Below, in pieces: positions 20,986-55,802 of a stretch of DNA of 64,000 nucleotides. The notes beneath the pieces were generated by a model. That model was given only the letters and a program-made list of their open reading frames with translations. It had not been told where the DNA came from and ran no database searches. Positions within the stretch are counted from its first letter, which is position 1. Each line of letters begins with the position of its first letter. The translations under genes and the position numbers were made by a program. This stretch comes from Octopus vulgaris (lineage: Eukaryota): the NCBI GenBank assembly GCA_951406725.2, contig OX597828.1:74772001-74836000 (forward strand), read 5' to 3'.

Positions 20986-23900
20986 AACGAAAGGCTAAAC
21001 TCGTTCAACTACCTCCTATAATCACGTATATCGCTGTATCTTAATTAAACAAACGCCAGGTGATAACGGCTGGTTTACCTTTGATCATAGGGTAACTGAA
21101 TTCAGGGTTTAGAGGCTGCTGTAAACCCGGAGGACAGTTCTTTCTTTAGGGCCTGTCCAACAGAAAGACGGTAAAGCGGGGGAATCTGGCCAGTTTGGGT
21201 CAAAACAAACATCAGCTGTTTCTTGTACAAGATGAAGCAAACCTATGGTCAAAGTTGTTCCGACCATGACCGTCCCTCATTTTTTTCAGCTGCAATGCGA
21301 CCCAGATTACCAGACTACATTATTCAATATGTCCTTTGGGACATGGTTGGTGGGGAGACTTAGTTGTTATTGCTAGCAAGTCGAATGATCACATAGAAAG
21401 TTTGGGGAGGTAGGGAGAGAGATGGAAAATGTGACTGTACCGCTTGTGTGTGTGTGTATTTATAGGTGACTGTGTGTGTGTGTTGCAGCTTATATTTAAA
21501 CTAACTTAATTACACCTGAACCGTTTCCACCTTACTCCTCCTCTTCCCTCTTCTCTTATCTCATACCTCCCCTCCTCTCCCCCTTTCACCTGTCTTTTCT
21601 TATCTCTGTTCTCCTCCTCCTCCTCCACCCGTCCTATAATTATATATCCTCCCCCTCAACCCCCCCCAACTGCCCCCCCCCCTCTCTACAAAACCAAAAG
21701 ACACACCACCACCCACACACCCACCTTCCGATACTGATTTCAGCAGGAAATACCTCTTTCCTTTTTTTGCCCGGCCATCCGGTTTTACAGATGCTTATAA
21801 CCGTCCTTACCATCACACCATCACACCACCACCACCACCACCACCACCACCACAAACACCACCATCATCAGCATAATCATCACCGACATCGCCACCACCA
21901 TCACTTAGATATTAATAGTTCTAACGCCTCTTTAAATCACCGAATGTCATGTCCCTGCTAGTTTAACAAAGGGCGCCTCTACATGGTCGCGTGATGTGCT
22001 AAAAATAGGAACCGAACCGTTTTTCAAATCACACGCTTACATCTATCTGAAAAGAGGAAAAAGACAGGACACATTGGATAGTTTTAGCATTTATATATAG
22101 ATGGAATGGTCATGACTGGAACGTCTTAGATTATAAGTCTTCTCAATCAGAACTGACCTGTGACTAAACAGCAGCTGGATCTGTTTCTGGTTGACTTTCT
22201 CTTTTGCCGTTTTTTTTCTCTAGTCTTCTCCCCACCCCCTCTCTGTCTCCCCCTCTCTCTCTCTCTCTTTCTCTCTCTTTCATGTTTGTGTTTTTAAAGA
22301 CAGGGAGGTGGGTGTCTGAGAGATAGAAGTGTGTACTCCACCCTTATTACACAACAGCCTCCCCCCCTTACTTCCTCTCTACCCGCCTCACCCCTTAGTA
22401 ACATTTCAATGAAAGAGCTGACCCCCCCCCCCCCCCGACCCCTACAATTTAAGTAGATTAGTCAAAGAGAAAATGGCTGCTTAAAATGTTATCCTTGAAG
22501 CAAAGAAAGGCAAATAAACATGGCGGTGGTGGTGGTGGTGGTGGTGGTGGTGGTGGTGGTGGTGGCGGTGGTGGTGGTGGTGGTGGTGGTGGTGGTGGTG
22601 ATGGTTATGTAATTGTGTTGTGATGACAACTTGTGATGGTGATGACAGTGGTGGTGTAACTGTGTTGTGATTACGATGATAATGATGGTGGGGTGGGGGT
22701 AGTGACGGTGCCATTTGAGGTACTAAATGGTAGTGGTTGTGGTGATGATGTAATATTTTGAGTTATGATGATGGTGATGGTGCTGTAGATGGTGATGTTG
22801 ATGATGATAATGATGATGACAATGCTGCTGATGGTGACTATGAAAGCTTATAGAGTAAATGAACTAACTCACCCCAACACACACACACACACACACACAC
22901 ACATCTGAAGAGAGAAAGTGATTTTGTGAGAAAAAACACCTAATTTAAGATCCCCTAATGCTAGGTACCTTATTACCTCTTCAAAGGTACCTTATTCTTC
23001 AAAGAAGGCAATTATTATAAATGAGGTCTTGTACTTATCTTTTAGAATTTAAACCAGGTATATCCAGCCTTAAATATTCCGCGCATTTTATGTTCAGACC
23101 AACCAGCTCCAACCTCTCACACCTACCCTACAATGTCATTGAGAAAATAAACAATAACATCACTGCAATGGCTGCTGCTGAAGTAATCCTCCCCTCCCAA
23201 TATTGTATATTTTTAACACAGTGTGTCCATAAAAGATGTTATCTCAGAATAAATAGTTATAACTGGCCTATCAACATTGTATATACATGGAGTATGATAC
23301 AACAATGGCTATATTTCTATGTCATTCACCCAGGACAGTTAGCCACAGTTTGCACTGAGTATGCATTTCTGCTAAAGAGTTTCCAAAAGTAAAGAAACCT
23401 GTATAAAGTTATCTCCCTCTACTTGCCCCCCTCTCTACTACCCAAATATCAATCATTGTAGAATAACTTTGTTTTTTGTGCATATTTTTGGCTGTCTTTT
23501 TTTTTCAGTTTGAATTTTTTTGTATATTTTAAAGATTAAATCAACATTTATCATCGTTTGACAATTCTTTATTCAATTTTTATGTTAATCTTCCCAAGAA
23601 TTTAATTTCAAGAAAAGCTATATTTTCTCCAAATTAACGTGCAGTCATCTATGAATGGCTCTCTTAATTACCATTCCATCTTTTGTTATCAGTTTTATTG
23701 TATTCTATTAATTCTTCATTAAACCAAGAAAGAATCTTTGAGACACAATGAATGAGTTAATGATCTCACCAAATAGTTTTGGCATTGCTCATTAAATTTG
23801 TACAAAACTGCAAGAATCTGAATCCATTCTTTTTTGGTAAAAACATATCAACGGAAGCATAAAGTAAAAGACAGACAAATTCTTCTTTTCTTCTTTTTCT

Positions 23901-26735: not shown

Positions 26736-27523
26736 GTTTTAAATTTTGGCACAAGGCCAGCAATTTCAGGAAAAGCTGGGATAGTTGAATACATCAACCC
26801 CACTACTTAACCAGTATGTATGTTATCAACCCTGGAGGGATGAAAGGCAAAGATGGCCTTCACAGAGTTTATTTGATAATAACAGTAATAATGATAAGAA
26901 TTCTTTGTTTTATTTGCCTCAAGGGGCCTTGCATTCATATAAAAAAAATCTTAGAGAAAAGAAGTGGGTCTTGTATGCATTTAGCAGCAAGAAGCCAAAA
27001 TGTTATCAACTATATTAAGACATGTTGTTGATGCCATTAGAATTTATAAACTTTCTGAGAGAGCAAGAAATAATTCTTATTTTTTGGAAGAGAGGATCTC
27101 GAACCAAACAAAAAGCTATAAATAATATCATGTAAACTTTTTTTTGTCTTCCTCTATGTTAGGAGGCACATGCACTCAAAGACACATGTACACATGAAAT
27201 GGAAACCTTCACCAACCAAATTCAATCACAAGGCTCCGGTCAGCCCAAGGCTAGAGCAGAAGACACTTGCCCAAGGTGCCACGCAGTGGGACTGAACCTG
27301 AAACCATGTGGTTCAGAAGCAAGCTTCCTTGAGTTGAAAAACTTGTTTGGAAAGAAAAAGTCGATTTGTACCCAGATATTCTGTGGACATGACAGGGTAG
27401 CTAGCCTTTGACCTTTTCCTACCTAAAAGGGGATTTTCATACCAATATTTACATAGTTCTATATTTAAGAGATGACGAATTATTTACATAAGACAGATAT
27501 TTGTCCTCATCTTGTTTGTTGTT

Positions 27524-27570
27524 AACACAACGTTTCGTCTGATATACCCTCCGGCCTTCATCAGGTCTCT
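27524..27570 (-). ncRNA. Hammerhead motif, mutated mirror copy
   Basis: Reverse complement GAGAC-CUGAUGA-AGGCCGG...UCAGAC-GAAACGUU-GUGUU. The core is intact, with stem I and II mismatches. Confidence 0.6.
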
Positions 27571-27859
27571 TAGGGAAATTTTGAACCTGGGCTCTCATTC
27601 CTAAGGTATTTTTCCAATGTTGTTGTTGTTGTTGTTATTTTTATTATTCAGGTCACTGCCTGGAATCGAACTTGGAATCTTGGAATTAGTAGCCTGCACT
27701 CTTAACCACTATGGGCATATGATGTAGTGGTTAAGAGCGTGGACTACTAACTCCAAGATTCCAAGTTTGATTCCAGGCAGTGACCTGAATGATAATAATA
27801 ATAATAATAACATTGAAAAATACTTTAGGAATGAGAACCCAGGTTCGAAATTTCCCCAA

Positions 27860-27905
27860 GACACCTGATGAAGGCTGGAGGGTATATCAGCCGAAACGTT
27901 GTGTT
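27860..27905 (+). ncRNA. Minimal type I hammerhead ribozyme motif
   Basis: GACAC-CUGAUGA(27865-71)-A-GGCUGG...UCAGCC-GAAA(27893-96)-C-GUU-GUGUU. Stem I GACAC/GUGUU; stem II GGCUG/CAGCC; loopless palindromic stem III ACGU. Confidence 0.75.
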
Positions 27906-28029
27906 AACAACAAACAAAATGAGGACAAATATCCGTCAAATGTTAGTAATGTACAATAGTTACATGTTGTTATTTATAGCTCTGTGTGCTTCAAGGTCCA
28001 CTGTTCCATGAAAAGAATATTAAGACATT

Positions 28030-28430
28030 TAACTCTTTAGCATTTAATCCTTTAGCAGTTCAGATTATTCTGTCAAATCTCATGCTTATTTATTCACAGC
28101 ATCTCAAATTAATCCTGAATTATTTCATAGCTTCAAGATTGTGATGATCTGGTAGTTTGTTTTCAGACTGACATCATCAGGTAGAATGTGAGGGTCCAGA
28201 TATGTTTGGTTTAAATGGTAAAGGGTTAGTTAAACTGGCCGTATCTGGCTGAAATGTCCTGCCCCTTTCATGTTTAAAATGGCCAGATCCAACCTCTTGC
28301 ACTAACCGTACAATGTCATTCTAAACATAAATAATCAGATCATTAGAATCTAGAAGCCACAACATAGTAATTAATATTAAATAAATAAGTTTAAGATTTT
28401 GCCAGAGAAATCTGAATGTTAACCCTTAAG
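28030..28430. mobile_element. TTAA-type (piggyBac-like) MITE family, nested copies
   Basis: Termini TTAAC(C/T)CTTTAGCATT...AAAGGGTTA. Related pieces lie near 23040, 24010, 28680, 36690-36850 and 47000-47470. Confidence 0.55.
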
Positions 28431-29156
28431 CAATTGAATCTGTCATATCAAGCCCAAATAGTTTAACTGTTGCCAGTACCACCTGACTGGCCCTCGTGCC
28501 GGTGGCATGTAAAAGCACCCACTACACTCTCGGAGTGGTTGGCATTAGGAAGGGCATCCAGCTGTAGAAACTCTGCCAGATCAAGATTGGAGCCTGGTGC
28601 AGCCATCTGGATTGCCAGTCCTCTGTCAAATCGTCCAACCCATGCTAGCATGGAAAGCGGACGTTAAACGATGATGATGATGCTTTATGCTCAAACCTAC
28701 CAGATTCAGCCCCTCACACCTGCCCTACAATGTCATTCTAACAATAAACAATCACGCCATCAAAATCTCAAAGCTACAAGGTAATACGTGATTAATATGA
28801 AACAATGTGAAATAAAGAGGCCTCTACATTTGACGAAGTAATCCCGGATGCTGAATGGGTGTTGATTATGTTTCATAAATCAACGACGTTTTTTCTTTAA
28901 ACACAATACAAGCGTTACTGCTGCTGCAACAATTGCGATGTGACATAGATTTAGTCTAAACATACCTAGTTTCTAGCTTTGCTAGGTCATTGCTTAAGTG
29001 GGATACAGTTTGCCCCCTGACCAGGGGTGGTGGCAGTGGTGATGATGATGAAGGAAGGGGATAAGTGATGATGACAAAACAAAGGAGTGCCCATGTTGGC
29101 TCCAAATGGCCAAACTTGTTGGTTTAGTTATGTGGTTTGTTTCTTCTATATATATT

Positions 29157-29207
<51 letters not shown>

Positions 29208-29287
29208 AATGTAGGGAGATGTCACTGTGTTTTCAGATTGCTGATTCACACACACTTATACTTACAAATATACACACCCATACTTAT

Positions 29288-29322
<35 letters not shown>

Positions 29323-42862: not shown

Positions 42863-43062
42863 TGGGGGAAAAACAAGAAGGAAATGGAGAAGAAATGGAT
42901 GTATGGAGAATTTATTTGTATGTTACAAAGATGAAAGTTTCTTTTAAAAAACATGACATTATAAATAAATTGATTACAGGTTGAAAAGCTCAATAAATAA
43001 TGTGAAACTCTGAGTAACAGATTTTGTGATATTTTTGCTGCTCTTTTAATAAAGTGTATATA
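42745..43062. mobile_element. Penelope-like inverted pseudo-LTR pair (non-autonomous)
   Basis: GAAACTC(A/T)GAGTAACAG...GCTGCT...AATAAAG is present on the minus strand (42748-42798) and the plus strand (43004-43054). Confidence 0.65.
42777..42824 (-). ncRNA. Type I hammerhead ribozyme motif
   Basis: Reverse complement AAAAACUGU-CUGACGA-ACG-GCAA-CGG-GAAA-CUCAGAG-UA-ACAGGUUUU. Stem I CUGU/ACAG; stem II CG/CG with a GCAA tetraloop; stem III ACUC/GAGU; GUA triplet. Confidence 0.8.
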
Positions 43063-44682
43063 TGGAAATTATAGCTGTGATGCACGTAAAAAGCAGCATC
43101 CGAACATGGCCGTTGCCAGTGCCGCCTTGACTGGATTCCATGCCTGTGGCACATAAAATGCACCAACCTCGTCTGGCCCATGTGCCAGTGACACTTAAAA
43201 AGCACCCACTACACTCACAGAGCGGTTGGCGTTAGGAAGGGCATCCAGTTGTAGACATACTGCCAGATCAGACTGAAGCCTGGTGCAGTCTCCTGGCTTC
43301 CCAGACCCTCGGTCAAACTATCCAACCCATGCTAGCATGGAAAACAGACAGTAAACGATGATGATATATATATATATATACACACACAAACACACACACA
43401 TTTATATCACATAAACGTAGGCAAAACTGCCTGGAGAGCAATGTTCCTACTAACACTATTTATAATTATCCTTTCTACAGTCAGCAGAATTCCAGCAATT
43501 CCAGGTGAGAGGTTTTAGTCAATTACATCGACCCCAGTGCTCAACTGATCCTTATTTTTTTGACCCCCAAAAGGATGTAAGGTGAAGTTTACTTCAGCGG
43601 AATTTGAAGTAAAGGATTGTAAAGATGGACAAAATACTGCTAAGAATTTTGCCTGGGTTACTAATGATTCTGCCAGCTCGCTGTCTTGGTAATAATATTA
43701 ATTTAATCAAAAGATGTTGGTATCAACACAGAGCCTTTGATGATGGTGATAATGCGCGCACACACACACACACACACACTCTTACACATGCATATGTACA
43801 AAAATGGAATGATCAGATGAGATGTAGTCCACCGCCCCATCAAGAATGTTGCTAAGTCTAACAAGAATTCAAACTGTGGTAACCCCTCCAACCCATATAT
43901 ACCAGTATTAATCAAGGGCATCCAGTTGTAGAAACTGTGTATTGGGGCCTGATGCAACTCTGCAGCTCATCAGACCTTGTCAAACCATCCAACCCATGCC
44001 AGCATGGAAAATAGACACAAAATGATGATGATGATGATCATCATCATCACTTTACTGTCTCCCCTCTTAGGCTGGTATGGGTTGATTTGACTGTTTTAAA
44101 AATAGGGTTTTGCTGTTAATTGCTCTTCATGATGTGACCCTTTTTTAATCTGTTCTCGTGACAAACTAAAATGCACACGATATATAAATTAATTCATAAT
44201 TAATATAAAAGATACAATTTAAATTTCTGAATATATATCCAAAGTCATTAAAAAATCCATGTTCAGAAATTTAGCAATTATCACTTTTAATTATGAATAA
44301 ATTAATTAACTGCTTTTAAGGCTGTTGATTGGCTGAATCATTAGAACTGTAGACAAAAATATCTTATGGTATTTGTTTTGGTTCCTTACATTCTGTGTTC
44401 AAATTCCAATGAAGTCAGCTTGGCTTTCGTCCTTTCAGAGTTGATAAAACAAACTATCAGTAGTTAATCTAATTGACTGTGCCCCTCCCCTCAAACGTCA
44501 AGCCTTGTACCTATGTTGGAAATAAGAAATTAACTTCTATCATTTATAATACAAAACGGTATTAGAGATTATAAGACTCAGTTTGAATCAGAAAAGAGGA
44601 ATGGTTGCCCAGATGGGTTCCATTAGCATGGAACTGTTGCTTTACTTGCCAAGTGGGTGATTGTATTACCGTTTCCTCTGCA

Positions 44683-45202
44683 CCGGGGGGTGGGGAAACT
44701 CTTTAGTGTGGTGGGCTAAAATTTTCAAAGAAAAAGGTCTGCGAGTGGATCGCAAGTACTAACTCTTATATCTGTTTAAATCTTGTATATATCTGTATAT
44801 TAATTCGATGTACATTAATAAAGATAAGTTTAACACATTAAACTTACACGTAACATCTTCATTAATGCCACCACTGAATTTGGACGCTTATATTACTTAT
44901 GCAGTATTCTATATCTTTCAGCTAGAGTATAGTTGGGACCCAAGGGGGTGGTACAAACCTAGCAATATGGGTTTTATTGTAAAATCAAAGTTTCCATCCA
45001 AATGGCAATTACTGGACGGTTTTCTGTTCAAGTCTAACCGTTTTAAGTCATTGTGGAAACGCAACCTATTGTTGCAAATATGCATACGAATATTGTATAA
45101 ATTTCATAATTGAAAAATTTACTATATTTTGTACATATGTGTATACCAGCCTAGGGGCATAATAAAATGGGCTTGCGGTGGGGGGGAAGGTCCCCACCCC
45201 TG
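44683..45202. mobile_element. hAT-like non-autonomous DNA transposon
   Basis: Termini (C)GGGGGGTGGGGAAAC and GTCCCCACCCCTG resemble CAGGGGTGGGGAA hAT TIRs. Confidence 0.5.
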
Positions 45203-45419
45203 CTGTACACAGTACCTGTCAGTGCCTTCATCTTAAATTAGGGTATTTAACACCATTATCTTTTATGTAATTACATTATAGCAGCTAAGTTTTAACATCT
45301 GCTGATAACGGTCAACTCCATTACCTCTCCTAACATTTCTTGTATTTTTGCTGTTTATTTTCATGTGTTCTTAAGAATTCTTTATTCAATGTGTTAATCC
45401 TTTATTAATTCTTTATTCA

Positions 45420-45660
45420 ATGTGTTTGGAAGGCATCGGTGTGTTTGGAAGATGTCAGTATGTTTGGAAGGTGTGTCTGGAAGGCATCAGTATGTCTGGA
45501 AAATGTTGGTGTGTTTGGAAGGCTTCAGTGTGTCTGGAAGGCTTCAGTGTGTTTAGGAGGTGTCGGCATGTTTGGAAGTTCTTGGTGTGTTTGGAAGTCA
45601 TTGTTACATTTGGAAGGTGTTGGAATGTCCAGAAGGTGTCAGTGTGTTTGGAATGTGTTA
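45420..45660. repeat. Degenerate ~19-bp minisatellite (GTGTTTGGAAGG...)
   Basis: TGTTTGGAAG/TGTCTGGAAG recurs about a dozen times. Confidence 0.85.
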
Positions 45661-45727
45661 ACTGACATGTTTAGAATGTGCAGGGTATTTATAAGCAGAA
45701 GAGCCTCTTCACTACTGCCAACACTTG

Positions 45728-45760
<33 letters not shown>

Positions 45761-46111
45761 CAACACTACTACAACTATTAGTATCACCAATACAATTCCC
45801 AGCAATACTTCTACTACCACCCCTACCACTATTACCAGCAACACTACTGCCTAACACCAAAAACCAGTGCTAAAACCATCACCACCACTCCACAACCACC
45901 ACCACCACCACCACCATCAACACAACCACCACCACCACCACCACCACCACCATCCTATATTTCTTTCACTATTTACCATTTTTAGTTTGTCTTGCTTTGT
46001 AGTGGAGATTAGATTCTAGGGTGTCTGTTGCTTATGTCTTATACATCTGTGTAAATATATACACAGCAGATATATACACACACAGCTTATCTCTCTCTCT
46101 CTCTCTCTCTC

Positions 46112-46145
<34 letters not shown>

Positions 46146-46746
46146 CAAAATACTGCTACTTCACTACCATTACCATTTGCTTATATATCACTACTTACCA
46201 TTTTTAGTATATATATATATGTGTGTGTGTGTATATATATTTATATATGCATACACATGCATATATTTATATAATATACATAATATTACAACTTCACCAC
46301 CACCCCTTAACACCACCCCATTACTATTAACCATTTTTAGTTACTTTTTACTCATATATCTGTTGTTTCGAACTGGTATGGACATTATTTCATGCTTCGA
46401 CTTGTCTTTTGGTTACCAGCTATTTGTCTGTCTGTCTGTCTCCCAAAGGCTAGCTGCCAGCAGATGGTGTTTTTCATGTAGATTCATCACAACAATTTGT
46501 TTCTTTATTCCATATGCCAAGATCATTGTTAAACATTTGAATTTCTCTTATTTTGGTGGCAGCTGCTACAATGTTTATTTCTTAAAGAAGTAGTGTGTTC
46601 GTTGTATAATTCACTTCTTCTTCCTGTGTAAGAAATGGAAATATGTACAGAAGTGAAAAATAGCTCTTTTTATTTCGTTTTTTTCTCTTTTTCTTTTTTC
46701 AAATAACTCTAAACAGTTATATTTAAAATTTCATATTTTCACTGTA

Positions 46747-46792
46747 TCTATAAACAGGCCGTTTCTGTATGTTTGTGCTTCATCAGTGTAGA
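46747..46792 (-). ncRNA. Decayed type I hammerhead motif
   Basis: Reverse complement UCUACA-CUGAUGA-AGCACAAACAUACA-GAAA-CGGCCUG-UU-UAUAGA. Stem I has 5 of 6 pairs; stem II is degraded. Confidence 0.5.
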
Positions 46793-48600
46793 GTATCATT
46801 TAGTTAATTCATTGTTTATTTACAAATTATATATTCAAGTTATTTCAACTTATTGTCTTCATGTTAAATCATGTGGAGAAGGGTAGAGTAAGACAGTAAG
46901 AGAAAGACAAAGAGGCAGAATCAAATATTCGTTTGAGGATAAAATGGACAGATAGACATTAGAAATAATGTTGGGATTAATCAGTTTGTGTTTCTTCATC
47001 TGCCAAGGCCAATCTGTCAGACATAATGCTTTTCAGGTTGTCTTGTATTAATCATGCATCATATCGCTGCTTCAAGATTTCAAAGATGTAATTGTTTATT
47101 TTTAGGATGACAGTGTAAGGTAGGTGTGATAGGTCAGATCCGATCAGTTTGAATATAAAACATGTAGAATATTTGGACTGGATATGCTAAAGGGTTAAAT
47201 TCAATTGGCTTGGAAATTATTCTGTGTTCAGCTTTTTCTCTTGGCATCACCCATTTTAGAGTATTTTTAAGAGAATTTAGTATTGCAACCAGTCACATCT
47301 AGATCCAATATTCTACCTGTTTTATGTCCAAACTAACCATATCCAGCCTCTCACACCTACCCCACAATGTCATTCTAAAAATAAACAATCACATCATTGA
47401 AACCTCAAAGCTATAAGATATTGCATAATCAATTCAAAACAATGTGAATAAGTAATCATTATAATTGATACAAAGGCATATGATTCATGGTAGCTATTTG
47501 TCTGTGTGTTCCACATGCCATGACCATCCTGTTTGAATTTCCTCACTATGGTAACTGTTACATTCTTTCTTATAGAAGCACTGTTTGGCTATTTTCATAG
47601 GATTTATTCCGCTTAGTGATCTCTTGCTATTTATATGTTATTTTGAGATTTAGGGTTAGTGATTAACTGAGCCTTAGGGAGTTTGTGATGTGTGTATGAA
47701 CTTTCAGGCCATTTGTTCTCAAAGTTACTCCTCCTTCTCCCCATATATCCATCTCCCCATTCTCTCTACTCTGTTGACAGTAACATCTTAGTTACCAAAA
47801 CCTTGTGGTTCCAGTTGCCCCACCTCCTCTATTACTCTTCTACACCACCTCCTCTTCCCTCCAATACTACTACTACTACTACTGCATTTATCAAACTCAG
47901 CTCCTCACTACCCACCACCTCCACTACCACCAACACCCTGTCACATATACCCAGTCACCATAACAACTGACAGTTCAATACCCTACTTCCACACTACTGA
48001 CTCAAGATATGTGTAGTAACCTGTACATGCCTGAATTACTGTTATCCAGTACTCTTGATTTGTTATCCACCCTGTATCTACCCTAATGACTACCTTTGAG
48101 TCATTAGGGTAGATACAGTCTTATCCTTTGTATAACACCCTTATGATTGACATTTGCCCAGTACCCTGTGTATATACTCTAATGGTTGATGTCTAGTATG
48201 TTGAATACACCCTTGTACTCAAAGTAGTGCACATTCAGTATCCTGAATAATAGGTTGACCTTGTACCCTGAAAAACACCTTTATAACTTGTCATTTGTCT
48301 CACACTGTATACCCTAGGCCACCCATAAGCAAATTGCAACCTGCAGGACTTTCCAGATGACACACCTAAACAAAGAAATTACTTTGACTTTTTTTTAAAT
48401 AATGCAACCTGCCACATGATGAGTCATGTCTCATACCTGCCTGCTTCTCAAAAAAAAGGTTGACTGTGCCTACCTCCAAACAGCAGCCAATACCTTTATG
48501 CACCCCAAGGCCTGGGGTTCTTCAGTACTTCATAGATTTATTTTCTTGTTCTTGTGGCAGCTTTCACCTGGGTTGGGTTGAGCCATCTCTAGCCCACGAG

Positions 48601-48765
48601 TACCGTATTTTAACATGTATAAGGAATCCCCAAATTTTGGGGGGTTAAAATTTTGAAAAAAGGTTTTGAAAGGTATTATAATACTATCCATGCATAAGAA
48701 ACTCCCATATTTTTCAACCTAATTTTTGACAAAAAAGGGTTCCTTATAAATGTTAAAATATGGTA
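48601..48765. mobile_element. Tc1/mariner-superfamily (pogo/Tc2-like) MITE with TA target duplication
   Basis: TA-CCGTATTTTAACATGTATAAGG...CCTTATAAATGTTAAAATATGG-TA terminal inverted repeats. Confidence 0.8.
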
Positions 48766-49589
48766 ATTCATGTTTGGGGTTTCAGCAGGAATACAAGTTT
48801 GCATGTGATGTGGCCCCTGGTCACATACATACACACTTTGGTGTCGTGTGATCTGTAGTTGCTCATCACGAAGAATTCACTGACCAAGTCACTGCCAATT
48901 ATCAGAGGAGACTTAACCTGGGTTTGAAACAGGTTCTAGAGACATGCTTTAACAAAAGCTAATAAGGTGGCTCACTCCCAGTGGTCTTCCCATATGTCAG
49001 GCTCCAGACTGGAACATCTGAAGGCCCATGCTAGCTAGCAATGCTAGATAACCATTGACCCTGCACTGAGTCCTATCCATTCTTTAGACAGGTCTTGTTT
49101 TTAGTCCTGCTGGGTTTCTAGCGACCCTCCTCAGGGTTTTTCTCTACCCTTTACAAACCCCAATGACTCCGGTTCATATGTAATCCCTAAGGGGTTAAAA
49201 AACAAAGGAAACTGTTAGTCTTAGAAACGAGTTTAGACAGGAATGAGAAATGTCTGTAAACATCTCTTATATTTTACCAATCTTCTTTGAAAAGGGTTGG
49301 GGATTGGGGGTAGAGTGTTTTCCCCCCTTTTATTTATTTTTTCAATATTTAATTAAGGGTGGGTTTGAAATTCCTCCTGCAGTAACATGTTTATTTATTA
49401 TACGCGCATTAGATATTATTTTTTATCTTTTGATAGTTTTTGATTTCATCTTGTATGTTGTTTTTACATTTTGTTTTTAATCTTTCTTTCATTTTCACTC
49501 AATGGAAGACACCCTCCCCCCCCACCATGTTTCTGTAACGTTTACCAGTCATTGCCCTTGTGACACCAGCACCATTACTGAGTCAGATT

Positions 49590-50795
49590 TGTTCCAGCTC
49601 TTTACGTTTTGAGTTCAATTCCCAATGAAGTCAGCTTTGCCATTCATCCGTTTGGAGGCGGTTGATAAAATAGAATACCAGTGAAATACTGGGGTTGATG
49701 ATATTGACTAAACCAGCTCCAATCAGAACTACTGGACCTAAATCAGAAGCGATTATTCTTAAAGTGATGCTGTGGCAGAATGATTGGACCATTGGTAAAA
49801 TGCCTTGTGTTATTTCTTCTGGCTTTTTACAATCAGAGTTCAAATCCCACCAAGGCCAACTTTGTTTCTGTCCCTCTGGGGTTAATAAAAGGAAATACCA
49901 TGTACTCAAGTTGATGGTCTCAACTAACTCTCTCCCCTCAAGACACCTTTTTCCGAAATCAGAAATTATCATTATATTCATTATTGAGGCAGTGAACTGG
50001 CAGAATTGTTAGCACCCTGATGTTCTGAGTTCAAATTCCACTGAGGTCGAATTTGCCTTCCATCCTTTCAGGGTCGATAAAATTAAGTACCAATTAAACA
50101 CTGGGGTCAATGTAATTAACTAGCTGTTCCTCACAAAATTTCAGGCCTTGTGTCTATAGTAAAAAGGGTTATTTATAAAGGCAACGAGCTGGCAGAATCG
50201 TTAACACAACAGGCAAAATGCTTGGCAGCATTTCATGTCTTAACAGTCTGAGTTCGGATTCCGCCAATGTCGACTTTGCCTTTCATCCTTTTGGGGTCAA
50301 CAAAAAAGAGAAATGGGGTTGATGTAATCGATTAGCCTCCTGCCCCTAAATTTCAGGCCTTGTGCCGATAGCAGACACGAATATTATTATTATTATTATT
50401 ATTATTAAGGTGGTGAGCTGGCAGAATCGTTAGCAAGCCAGGCAAAATGCTTAGCAGTATTTCACCTGTCGCTACGTTCTGAGTTCAAATCCCGCTGAGA
50501 TCGACTTCACCTTTCATCCTTTTGGGGGTCGATAGATTAAGTACCAGTTCTGTACTGGAGTCAATCTATTTGACTGCCCCACTCCCCTCAAATTTCAGGC
50601 ATTGTGCCTATAATAGAAAAGATTTTAGAGCTATTTCATCTGTCTTTACATTCTGAGTTCAAATCCCGCTGAGGTCGACTTTGCCTTTCATCTTTTCGGG
50701 GTTTGATTGAATAAGTACCAGTTACACACTGGGGTCGATGTAACTGACTTAATACCTTCCCCCAAATTTGAGGCCTTGTGCTTCCAGTAGAAAGA

Positions 50796-50850
<55 letters not shown>
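49590..50850 (+). mobile_element. Head-to-tail array of ~6-7 family B SINE copies/fragments
   Basis: Repeated GAGTTC(A/G)AAT...(C)TTTGCCTTTCATCCTTT...GGGGTC blocks near 49610, 49837, 50027, 50250, 50481 and 50655, ending in (ATT)n. Confidence 0.9.
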
Positions 50851-50852
<2 letters not shown>

Positions 50853-51888
50853 TCTTTTTATCTTTGCTATTTTCGGGGTCTGTTGCCAACATAAACACCT
50901 TTTTCTGCATGAATCTGTTGTACCTTCAGCTGTTGGGGTCTCAACCACGAGATGTTCTCTTATAGTATTTACCTCTTGTACTTTCATATGCACCACACCT
51001 TCCAACTCACCATCACCACCTCCACCTCCACCACCACAGCCATTATTTTGGCACCCTACTGATACACCAGTCCTCACCCCTCCACCACCACCATTCCAAA
51101 CCCTTTCTGCCCCTGTCTTGTTATCCTCCACTCTATGCCCTTTGCTAGACAGAAAACCTTCTGCCATTCCTAACAAGAATGGAATTTCTGAAAACGATGG
51201 GGATGAGTTAGGATGGGGTGGAGGTCTCACCTAACATCCACCCTTTTTCCTCCCCCTCTCTCTCTCTTCTCCCCTCCGCCTGCTCTCTTTTGCTATCATT
51301 TTTCTGTCCAGCTTCCACCCAGAAGGCATATATATACTACTACACCCCTTTTTGTTGTCTTTGGTAATATCAGGTTTCATACAGGGAACCAACCTAAACA
51401 GACCCCTAGGTGGTAAGGAGATATTTTAAGCATCCTACATACACATACGCACACATATCTGCATACACTTATATACATATATAAAAACTTGCACATACAC
51501 ATAAAGGAACTGATTGCTTGACACTGATACCACAGCCAGCCACCCAAGGGTGCTTCTATGTGGTCTGTGGATCTACTGGAAATAGCAGGGAAACCTCCTT
51601 CAAATCATGCACTCACACACACAAGACAATGTTGTCCTTGGTTTGCTGTATGAAAGATGGGGTTGCCATGTGTGGAGCTCCTCTGATTGTAAGGCTGCTC
51701 AGTCAGAGCTGACAACGACAGCATCTTCATATCTGAACCAACTTACTAGAAATAGCAGTGAAATCTCCCTCAAACCAAACCCTGCCAGAAAGACATGTTA
51801 GAGAATGTAGTCCCCTGTTGTACAGGATGGTCATGGCTGGAACACTCTTGCTTGTGAGTCTGCTCAGTGTTGTCCTGGAGTTAAATAA

Positions 51889-52240
51889 CATGGCTGTGTG
51901 GTAAGAAGTTTGCTTCCCAACCACATGGTTCTGGGTTCAGTCCCACTGCATGGCACCTTGGGAAAATGTCTTCTTCTATAGCCTTGTGTTGACCAAAGCC
52001 TTGTGAGTGGATTTGGTAGATGGAAACTGAAAGAAGCCCGTCATATGTGTATGCGTTTGTCCCTTGCCACTATTTGGCAACTAGTGTTGGTTTGTTTACA
52101 TCCCTGTAACTTTGTAGTTCAGCAAAAGAGACTGATAGAATAAGTACCAGGGGTCAGTTAGTTTGATTAAAACTCTCCAAGCTAGTGCTCCAGCCTGGTC
52201 ACAGCTTGATGTGTGAAACAAATAAAAGACGAAAGATAAA
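51889..52240 (+). mobile_element. SINE family A copy
   Basis: Family head, core and tail. Confidence 0.85.
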
Positions 52241-52254
52241 AGAAGTGTCTTTAT

Positions 52255-52440
52255 ATAGTTGCATGACCTGCTAGAAATAACAGCCAAGTCTCCCTTAAAT
52301 GACACACTGGATAATGTTGTCTGGGATATGCTATTTCAACCCCCCACCCCACCAAAAACAAAACCAGGATGGTCTCATCTGGAATGCCTTTGTTTATAGA
52401 TCTGCTGGTTCACTAATTTCCTGGGGCTAAACAACAGCTT
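52255..52440 (+). mobile_element. Representative of abundant family E repeat (CTAGAAATAACAGCCAA...GGATGGTC...CCTGGGGCTAAACAAC)
   Basis: Well over ten diverged copies on both strands, e.g. ~6780, 14680, 15330, 21240, 21980, 32930, 51740, 60330 and 62630. It is likely an old retroposon. Confidence 0.65.
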
Positions 52441-53079
52441 CAGACAAAAACCTTTGATACTGTCAGGTGAGGGGTTAGGGGTTTGTCACTAAATATTGAT
52501 TTATGAATCATGTTGTCCAGACTTGTCTGTCCACTGCCGCCACCACCACTGCCGCCAATGCCAAGTTCTTCAATGGTCAACCTGCTTAATACTTTGATGT
52601 CCTTTCAAGTCTGTTTCTAAGATTTTTTATATCAACAAGGATCCAAGCCCAGGCAAGTCCTGACGCATTTCTGTCAAACAGACAACATTCCAAAACGCCA
52701 TTGTTGTGGCTGTTGCTATTGTTGCTATTGTTCATAATAAAAGTAGTGCCAGTGGTGGTGGTGGTGGTGGTGGTGGTGGTGGCAGAGATATGCAGCAATA
52801 GCAGTAGTACTGCTGCTACTACTACTACTACTACCACTTTAAGCACAAGTCTTGCAACTTTGGGGAAGGGGGACAGTTGATGACACTGACCCCAGCGCTC
52901 AACTGATACTTATTTCATCAACCGACCCCAAAAGGATGAAAGGCAAAGTCGACCTCAGTGGAATTTGAACTCAGAACATAAAGACAGACAGAATGCTGCT
53001 TAGCATTTTGTCCCACACGCTAATGGTTCTACCAGATTGCCACCTTAATAATTATGATGATAGTAATAATAATAGAGTG

Positions 53080-53295
53080 AAGGTGCATGGCTCAGTGGTT
53101 AGAGCATCAAGCTTACGATTGTGAGGTTGTGAGTTCGAATCCCGGACCGGGCTGTATGTTGTGTTCTTGAGCAAGACACTTTATTTCACGTTGTTCCAGT
53201 TCACTCAGCTGTAGAAATGTGTTGCGATGTCACTGGTGCCAAGCTGTATTGGCCCCTTTGCCTTTCACTTGGATAACATCAATGGCGTGGAGAGA
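53080..53295 (+). mobile_element. tRNA-derived SINE, family D
   Basis: A box TGGCTCAGTGG, B box GAGTTCGAATCCC, then TTCTTGAGCAAGACACTT core. Confidence 0.8.
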
Positions 53296-54383
53296 TGTAA
53301 GGCAAAGTTGACCTCAGGAGGATTTGAACTTAGAATGGAAAGAGTTGGAAGAAATACCACTAAGCATGTTGTCTGACATGCTAACCATTCTGCCAGTTGG
53401 ATGCCCTAATAACAACAACAACACAGTGGCTCTCACTATACACGACTGTTCAAACTGTGTTACTCTTGTTTAACCCAGTTTGTGGTACTCCAACTACCAA
53501 CTTGTGGTACTCCTCTCTGACCCAACTAATATATACTCTTGCCTGATCCCTCCATTGTGTAGTACTCCTCTCTGACTCTACCAGCTTAGGATACTCCTAT
53601 TCTACACTGCTGACATGTGGTACTCTTCTCTTGCACTACAGGCTGGTTGGGGTACCCTTGCCTAATACTATCAACTAATTGAGGTACTCCTGTCCCACAC
53701 AGCCATCTTATATCAGAGTAGAGGAATGAGTCAGTAGGTTTTTTTAAAATTTGTTTTATTTTTAATTAATATAGTTTCTTCTCGCATTTACTGTATTTAA
53801 TTGTGAGAATTCATTAATGTTAAAACGCTTTTAGTTATTGGTGGGAAAGAAACAGTGTTTAAAATAGCCTTAACAGACTAGACATGTCTACAATAAGCAG
53901 AGACTGCTAATGGAAGGAGAGAAGTGTGTGTGTGTGTGAAAGAGAGGATTTAAATTTGGAGTGTGTGTGTGTGTATGTATGTATATATATATGTATTGAA
54001 GTAATCAACATATATGTATATAAATATATACATACATATATTCAAATGTCACCTTGTACAGTTTTCAACACGTTGTAAAGTGACACGTTTGCCGTACTGC
54101 AAAGTGACCTGGAGGGTATGTGCATGTGCAGAATGAACATAGGGCAAGTTGCAAGGTCTCTCTCTCTCTCTCTCCACATACACAAACAGATGCAAAGACA
54201 GTGCATACAAACGTGTTTGTGTGCAATCACACTGCTTTGCAATTTGGACAAGTGTCATCTCTTACAACTCTGGGTTGACAAAAAAACTTTGTAAATGGAT
54301 TTGGTGGACAGAAATGGTAAGAAGCCCATTGGGTGTGTGTGAGAGAAAAGAGATGGAAAGAGATAGGAAGTGCATGAATTCAA

Positions 54384-54536
54384 GCTGTGTGTGTGTATAA
54401 AGTTTGCTTCTTAACCACATGGTTCTGGGTTCAGTCCCACTGCGTGGCATCTTCGGCAAGTGTCTTCTACTATAACTTCGGGCAGACAAAAGCCTTGTGA
54501 GTGGATTTGGTAGATGGAAACTGATAGAAGCCTATC

Positions 54537-54581
<45 letters not shown>

Positions 54582-54813
54582 TACATGTATGTATGTATGT
54601 ATGTCTTTGTGTGTCTGTGTTTGTCCCCCCCCACATACCATTGTTTGACAGCCACTGGTGGTATGTTTACATCCCCATAACCTAGCAGTTCCGCAAAAGA
54701 GACCGATAGAATAAGTACTAGGCTTACAAAGAATAAGTCCTGGTGTCGATTTGTTCAACTAAAGGCGGTGCTCCAGCATGGCCACAGTCAAATGACTGAA
54801 ACATGTAAAAGAG
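54384..54813 (+). mobile_element. SINE family A copy
   Basis: Family core, internal (TA)n and tail. Confidence 0.85.
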
Positions 54814-55118
54814 TAATAACATTGTTGGCAACACTCAAGTATTGCAGTCACTTCTTCTTAATTGGTTTACAGTTTTATATTTCTTTAGGCTCCTTTAATT
54901 CTCCCTAGGGTACCCTGATGCCCTGCGTGGATCTCTGCTTGAAAACCAATGATAAAGAATAGATTTACTTTCATTTTCAATAAAAAGGGCCAGTTTTGTT
55001 GCTTACCTTGTGGCAGGGTTACTAAATATTGAATATCCATGTTGGAAGAAAGGTTATGAAGCTGCAATCATTGGATCCCATTGTGAGGTTTAGGGTGAAT
55101 AATTAAAGTAAATATATT

Positions 55119-55333
55119 CTCTTCTCCTCTAGGCACAAGGCCCAAAATTTTTGGGGAGGGGGCCAGTCGATTAGATCGACTCCAGTGCGCAACTGGTACT
55201 TAATTTATCAACCCTGAAAGGATGAAAGTCAAAGTTGACCTTGGTGGAATTTGAACTCAGAACGTAAAGACAGGTGAAATATCGCTAAAGCATTTCGCCT
55301 GGCATGCTAGCATTTCTGCCAGCTCGCCGCCAT
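55119..55333 (-). mobile_element. SINE family B, full-length, with 17-bp target-site duplication
   Basis: ATTAAAGTAAATATATT at 55102-55118 and 55334-55350 flanks the element. Confidence 0.92.
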
Positions 55334-55377
55334 ATTAAAGTAAATATATTGGGAAAATATAGACTGCTATTAATATA

Positions 55378-55767
55378 CATAAAAGATAGAAAATTGAATA
55401 CACACGTGCGAAAAAATGTGCTTAATTAAACTAGGAAACCCGCACCTAAATAATACTCACCCTGCCCTAATTACCCAACGAAAGTAACCAGTCTACCACA
55501 AGCAAACCTCTACCCTGTAAATTTACCAGTGCAAGAACAAAATTTAATGTAAGGACACTTTTGGTTACATTACCATCACATATGTATCAATTATTTTCGC
55601 ATCTTATCTATATTCGCATTCTGAAGAGATTCACTTAAACCAGTAAATTGAAACAATCCTAAATGCTACCTCGATCTCTGCTTCCTTCTTCGTTATCTAA
55701 TTAATTAAAGACATACCAGCGAAAACCACGAGTCTCCCACTGTTATTATATCCATTTTCTTCTCCTT
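55378..55767 (+). mobile_element. ~390-bp retrozyme-like insert flanked by a 20-bp direct repeat
   Basis: TATAGAC(T/A)GCTATTAATATA at 55358-55377 and 55768-55787, with an internal hammerhead motif and no ORF. Confidence 0.65.
55616..55666 (+). ncRNA. Type I hammerhead ribozyme motif (partly decayed)
   Basis: GCAUU-CUGAAGA-GAUUCAC-UUAAACCA-GUAAAUU-GAAA-CAAUCC-UA-AAUGC. Stem I GCAUU/AAUGC is perfect; stem II has 6 of 7 pairs; the 15.2-16.2 pair is broken (C:C). Confidence 0.7.
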
Positions 55768-55802
55768 TATAGACAGCTATTAATATATATATATATAAAA
55801 TA

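Follow-up and report, generated by a model that had tools for sequence, protein, structure and literature searches.

Hammerhead motifs in an octopus Galpha-i intron: probable end repeats of decayed Penelope-like elements, one family of which carries a tRNA-derived head

The first intron of a Galpha-i gene in Octopus vulgaris raises the question of what a cluster of sites resembling the type I hammerhead ribozyme represents, and whether any of them could act on the transcript in which they lie. An earlier note, made from sequence alone, listed eight such motifs in a 64,000-nt stretch of the 2.8-Gb genome (contig OX597828.1; G000:C15:74,772,001-74,836,000), hereafter the window, within which all positions below are counted. 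We consider it probable that these are 3' end repeats, or pseudo-long terminal repeats (pLTRs), with a hammerhead, belonging to 5'-truncated insertions of Penelope-like elements (PLEs), that they have mostly decayed and are likely to be inert in the intron, and that in one family, here called A, a tRNA-derived head with A and B boxes likely serves RNA polymerase III (Pol III) as promoter.

Repeat families behind the motif sites

The coordinates and letters given for the eight motifs agree with the window sequence, and the contexts in which they lie, said to be at least five and unrelated, are five dispersed repeat families (A to E). As a count of ribozymes the figure of eight fares less well: the sites do belong to repeat families with hammerhead consensuses, but they derive from about six insertions, and that at 42980, described as half decayed, is a copy of a C subfamily truncated within helix II and without a CUGANGA box, so that it is no hammerhead. 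The sites at 27524 and 27860 are the two inverted arms of a single insertion. Those at 34315 and 36236 are 95% alike, with non-consensus letters in common, and only 77-84% identical to the other nine family B matches; they were therefore counted as one insertion event, likely one old copy with a local duplication. The family structure is kept in only two of the eight window copies, 27860(+) and 42777(-), the other six being broken.

The evidence that these are nevertheless genuine hammerhead relatives comes from the families rather than from the window. Candidates genome-wide numbered 1847 for A, 11 for B, 953 for C, 10 for D and 393 for E, with up to 40 scored and up to 30 fetched per family, and the consensuses were made without the window copies. 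All five restore the full core, close helix I and have a palindromic helix III, and in each context pairing is better in the consensus than in the window copy. A minimal type I hammerhead is present in the consensuses of A, B, D and E and, for C, in the youngest subfamily. Pairing was assessed quantitatively at the four inner pairs of helix I: across the five families all 20 cells are paired, with 3-4 pair types per position, as compared with a permutation mean of 9 paired cells (P=1/120). The stem covariation that the earlier note named as a check is thus present, as is the pattern it described of differing flanks and stems around a common core, helix I letters varying by family while the core is shared by the consensuses. 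Two more minimal hammerhead types, absent from the eight sites, were seen in a random genome sample (L140:8790, minus strand, and L128:2271, plus strand); with these two added, 27 of 28 helix I cells are paired. Within families the variation is plain decay, A and E each having 13 intact copies among 29.

This family-level evidence is stronger than the density of motifs in the window, which by itself is weak evidence. A descriptor scan of the window for the minimal type I hammerhead gives a single match, at 27865, only one of the eight motifs passing the strict version, and the shuffled window reaches one match in 1 of 60 trials under the strict and 7 of 60 under the relaxed descriptor. The comparison with shuffled controls proposed by the earlier note is more telling on a larger sample: in 37 arbitrarily placed 10-kb stretches (370 kb; 12 shuffles) the strict descriptor finds 3 matches against 0.08 in shuffles and the relaxed one 7 against 0.42, although two of these seven look like chance. 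Rfam gave no match in the window at the gathering threshold and, at E<=1 over five loci, microsatellite noise only.

Coding parents of families A, C and E

The earlier note had taken the motif-bearing repeats for a diverse, very abundant set of Penelope-related elements, which they are, of a non-autonomous or retrozyme kind, which three of the families are not. By their sequence, A, C and E are truncated 3' ends of PLEs bearing open reading frames (ORFs), since their repeats trace to coding sequence for reverse transcriptase (RT), a GIY-YIG endonuclease, or both. Domain assignments for GIY-YIG and for zinc-finger linkers were read by eye; a Pfam scan found RVT_1 in the A protein and nothing in the C protein.

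Family A is represented in the window by two head-to-head arms. The right arm (27713-27958, plus strand) is a complete pLTR without tail. It comprises the tRNA-derived head (27713-27787), whose A box (27720-27730) and B box (27765-27773) are both slightly decayed in this copy, an ATG (27831-27833) that in tandem copies is in frame with the PLE ORF, and an intact minimal type I hammerhead (27860-27905) identical to the family consensus, sense to Galpha-i and with its predicted cut at 27900/27901, 70 nt downstream of the ATG. The left arm (27455-27712, minus strand) is a 5'-shortened pLTR, with head from about +9, an (AAT)n-like tract and a decayed hammerhead (27524-27570), to which the optional 3' tail is added. 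In this family the tail passes straight into coding sequence. In full elements (L175, L181, L183, L188, L191) coding sequence for RT and GIY-YIG precedes the head, (AAT)n, hammerhead and tail, in that order; partial tandems have a pLTR on both sides of the ORF (L172, L191), and the ORF's first ATG falls within the pLTR at a point upstream of the cut. The consensus from 16 loci has a frame open for 810 codons that scores as RVT_1, and its closest protein homologues carry PF00078/PF26215, one Anolis protein being 40% identical. A zinc-finger linker marks Neptune and Nematis PLEs (PMC8557442); the family A protein is without one and so is of Poseidon type.

The short copies of family A share their sequence with the pLTR of the coding element. 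They are 5'-truncated, often head-to-head, with a tail on one arm only, and an inverted 5'-truncated partner together with a 30-70-nt tail on one end is found at 27455-27958 and at further loci. Ten body matches in 370 kb extrapolate to tens of thousands of arms in the genome. Judged by these sequence features, the short copies behave like daughters of the short interspersed element (SINE) type and do not qualify as a separate non-autonomous lineage. The element is carried by contigs or reads of four other organism labels, mostly at 90-95% identity, and pieces bridging ORF end and head were found in two of the four.

The window copy of family C (42748-42831, minus strand, antisense to Galpha-i) is the 3' end of a Neptune-type PLE inserted in (TA)n, with a hammerhead (42777-42824) structured as in its family. 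Upstream, the family has a T-rich 3' untranslated region (UTR) and then an RT/GIY-YIG ORF with a cysteine linker, and in 16 of 20 loci there are 3.35-kb units whose two pLTRs each contain a hammerhead. The parent (L228, L229, L235-L254) is a very young Neptune-type subfamily with many identical-scoring copies; on account of these and of 727-aa open frames in about 37 of the 150 matches listed, this subfamily was probably active recently. Its core reads CUGAUGA (39 cases), whereas older subfamilies have C at core position 4 rather than U; in the parent hammerhead, helix II is 2 bp long and capped by a GCAA loop. Among the short copies (L042-L071), 25 of 30 begin within 4 nt of one point just upstream of the hammerhead, and no promoter-like head is present there. 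For family E, represented by 3' UTR and end at 55355-55771 (plus strand) with a hammerhead at 55616-55666 whose helix III palindrome is broken and whose helix II has a mismatch, the coding link is a GIY-YIG C-terminus upstream of the repeat in L083 and L106, the end of that domain only. Around the insertions, (TA)n targets, inverted partners and one-sided tails fit the PLE pattern.

Most of these properties have precedents. The minimal hammerheads of metazoan PLEs (PMC4209133) are likewise of type I with an absent or palindromic helix III and an extra base after A9; they too occur as thousands of mostly solo truncated copies, in many consensus families per genome, with opposite-strand pairs 100-700 bp apart. 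The octopus sites differ from the account in that source in the tRNA head, which it does not describe, in the host, nothing octopus-like being named there, and in the helix II of family C, which has 2-3 bp and a GNRA loop, with C4 in older subfamilies. Poseidon_Ac (PAc) of the green anole (PMC11167929) shares with family A an RT and C-terminal GIY-YIG, a pLTR, an optional tail, AT-rich targets and a hammerhead that overlaps the ORF start, with its cut downstream of the ATG. The ATG precedes the cut by 26 nt in PAc and by 70 nt in family A, the pLTR of which adds the A/B-box head and (AAT)n. Metazoan non-LTR retrozymes, that is, those without long terminal repeats (PMC7229834; bioRxiv 10.64898/2026.07.22.740005), also have type I hammerheads and are PLE-related, yet they are by definition tandem non-coding units, which the window sites are not; arrays of non-coding units each with a hammerhead were found neither in the window nor in the sampled loci.

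The family A head and Pol III

The family A head is 75 nt long, and in the master sequence its A and B boxes match the consensus for such boxes at exact tRNA spacing. Among 35 distinct tRNA-like genes from 30 loci it aligns best to a tRNA-Arg(TCG) gene of this genome (z 7.7), 'Arg' being provisional as the comparison was limited to Arg, Ala, Cys, Thr, Lys, Glu and Ser calls. A tRNA-Ile-like origin was rejected, as a tRNA-Ile-like motif matched nothing in the genome.

Copy number rises sharply at the head. Exact CpG-free 19-mers occur genome-wide 552 times at -337, 1086 times at -44, 5491 times at +29 (within the head) and 8421 times in the body, a 5-fold step across 73 nt as compared with a 2-fold one across 293 nt, and two overlapping 21-mers place the bulk of the step between -16 and -2 (285 vs 1013). 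Individual starts were read from 81 consecutive matches on C1, representing 78 loci (one two-match locus gave the same start twice). Of these heads, 72 have their start in the range -19 to +29, the majority from -7 to +7; a 12-nt palindrome lies at -7, and it is there or slightly further in that most of them begin. Two reach 20-26 nt upstream and seven more than 44 nt. An inverted partner accompanies 50 of the 81, copies that are not inverted pile up at the same wall, and many junctions are palindromic. The run TTTT is absent from the sense strand of the 2670-nt family A unit, where composition predicts 4.9 and the frequency in seven head-less PLE ORFs, which have 3-16 runs apiece, would give 7.5; ten actual family A copies average 0.5 per kb.

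The starting of most copies at the head and the absence of TTTT suggest Pol III transcription of family A. On our preferred reading, Pol III would start just upstream of the head and yield an RNA of about 260 nt, which the PLE enzyme would copy in trans, giving rise to SINE-like copies in their tens of thousands, of which 27455-27958 is an example; the palindrome at the RNA 5' end would let the cDNA fold back and produce the inverted arm. In PLEs the protein nicks AT-rich DNA and reverse transcription begins at the tail, the hammerhead being weak and in need of a dimer or of protein (PMC11167929, PMC4209133). For the short copies we lean slightly towards Pol III initiation. For the full coding RNA it seems rather unlikely, and we would offer only tentatively the wider proposal that family A is an autonomous coding retrotransposon whose whole RNA of about 2.7 kb is made by Pol III from the tRNA-derived pLTR promoter, purged of TTTT terminators and translated cap-independently across its own hammerhead, and that its 3' repeat spawns the SINE-like daughters.

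A number of observations weigh against this reading. ARAGORN finds no tRNA in the window, and at normal thresholds neither it nor Rfam calls the head a tRNA. GGGG is missing from the family A unit as well (0 against 3.3 expected, or 5.3 at the control rate), and codon shuffling gives P of only 0.03-0.04 for the absence of TTTT. The 5' wall is not diagnostic of Pol III, since head-less family C has one too (25 of 30 copies within 4 nt) and rotifer pLTRs have 5' palindromes together with motifs resembling TATA and initiator (Inr) elements (PMC3846280). Among 41 ORF-start loci, eight reach the head of the upstream pLTR; two of these start at the wall, two inside the head and four upstream of it, so that the coding RNAs often exceed one unit in length. 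Three RNA runs (related organism label, unstranded, fragmented) show no pile-up of starts or ends, and 70-77% of their reads ran on into unrelated sequence; they are uninformative on a Pol III start or on cleavage either way. Finally, as regards the PLE origin, the parents of families B and D were not traced among their 11 and 10 matches, all old, in which shared sequence stops about 100 nt upstream.

How far, then, do other explanations account for the same facts? A serious possibility, though in our judgement a doubtful one, keeps the PLE origin and makes the head a passenger, a captured piece of tRNA or SINE, with a Pol II promoter in the pLTR and the 5' pile-up due to self-priming at the palindrome. 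The headless wall of family C, the inverted partners of 50 of 81 heads with their often palindromic junctions, and the loss of GGGG alongside TTTT are all as this would predict, and the Penelope of Drosophila virilis uses a TATA-less internal promoter like that of a long interspersed element (PMC2377424). It sits less easily with A and B boxes that are consensus-perfect in the master sequence, with the TTTT runs retained by all seven head-less control ORFs, and with the piling up of non-inverted copies at the same point. Moreover, the wall lies 10-17 nt upstream of the consensus A box, and Pol III starts about 10-17 nt upstream of an A box.

Two further explanations concern the motifs as a whole. 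That the motifs are independent retrozymes or SINEs of a non-autonomous kind, whose sense copies could nick the nascent intron, would agree with the very high number of short copies and, for tRNA head plus hammerhead, with the SM-alpha SINEs of Schistosoma (PMC6765202). We regard this as improbable, as it is contradicted for A, C and E by short copies identical in sequence to the pLTRs of ORF-bearing elements; the lack of tandem arrays in the window or sampled loci, the broken state of six of eight motifs and the predicted duplexing of the intact sense copy (see below) also speak against it. The remaining explanation, that a short motif was matched by chance in DNA rich in AT and in repeats, could appeal to the strict descriptor being passed by one motif in eight and to the relaxed matches in 7 of 60 shuffles, yet it is highly improbable given that every context is a repeat family with a consensus better paired than the window copy, that all 20 helix I cells pair across families and that the 370-kb sample is enriched.

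Two known systems come closest to the head-plus-hammerhead arrangement that we favour as a Pol III unit. The TRIMp3 elements Cassandra, Helenus and Ajax (PMC10886601) also have, within a terminal repeat, a Pol III promoter that derives from a small RNA; they are, however, non-autonomous LTR elements, with autonomous partners expected to use Pol II, whereas the family A repeat belongs to a coding PLE. In Schistosoma SM-alpha and Sj-alpha (PMC6765202) a short mobile unit similarly has a hammerhead after a Pol III-type promoter, but that unit is non-coding and without known coding parent, whereas that of family A is the end repeat of an autonomous element. Literature at title and abstract level yielded no tRNA-headed or Pol III-driven PLE, though the family may have an entry in Repbase or Dfam, which lay outside the search, and the available portion of the octopus repeat paper (PMC13282606) mentions neither ribozymes nor Pol III.

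The host intron and its other features

The earlier note placed the motifs within one Galpha-i intron, and the gene structure bears this out. Coding exon 1 is at 5740-5857 (plus strand), and intron 1 runs from 5858 past the window end (about 60 kb), holding all eight motif sites; exon 2 lies about 1.9 kb beyond the window, with the remaining exons further downstream. The last exon encodes a C-terminus of Galpha-i type, judged by what we take to be the motif of that subtype. Five of the sites are sense to the gene and three antisense.

Nicking of this intron, which the earlier note thought possible for active sense copies, appears unlikely, because only one of the five sense motifs is unbroken, that one is predicted to lie in a duplex, and minimal PLE hammerheads need a dimer or protein. 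For the intact copy at 27860, complete pairing with the inverted arm is predicted, in a hairpin of about 230 bp (-336 kcal/mol, z -40). By analogy, a single minimal PLE hammerhead showed no cleavage as a monomer in vitro (PMC4209133), and that of PAc cleaves only with protein, is dispensable for insertion and leaves no read ends at the cut site (PMC11167929). As a separate matter, the inverted arms at 27470-27960 would place an RNA duplex of about 230 bp in the Galpha-i pre-mRNA, a plausible substrate for A-to-I editing.

The remaining family copies in the intron are old. Those of family B lie at 34315-34392, with core and helix I broken, and at 36231-36315, the likely local duplicate, with helix I broken (both plus strand); the 3' half of the hammerhead region of this family also has a weak match at 23394-23426 (plus strand; E 6e-4). 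The older C-subfamily fragment, truncated in helix II and lacking the 5' core box, occupies 42999-43062 (plus strand). The copy of family D (46694-46833, minus strand) contains a hammerhead (46747-46792) in which helices I and II both have mismatches, and just upstream of it is a 155-nt inverted repeat, 75% complementary (47032-47186 and 47294-47448). Seven copies of another abundant repeat of 151 nt, resembling a SINE head, were seen at 31527, 35979, 51891, 54385, 55811, 58489 and 63623, and a mixed (TG)n/(TA)n microsatellite of about 1.9 kb covers 9032-10986.

The hammerheads are thus a known PLE trait and here neutral debris; the new part of the finding is the tRNA-headed pLTR of a coding PLE. 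Its interest lies in the fact that Pol III promoters in terminal repeats have been described for non-autonomous elements (PMC10886601). Family C, which is very young, has numerous intact ORFs and has undergone changes in the core, is a practical system in which to ask whether PLE hammerheads must cleave. If Pol III does drive a coding PLE in family A, the element would be a testable case of cap-independent expression of retrotransposon proteins and a visible intermediate between PLE and SINE; and if it spawns SINE-like daughters, these would offer a direct route to SINEs that combine tRNA and hammerhead, such as SM-alpha.

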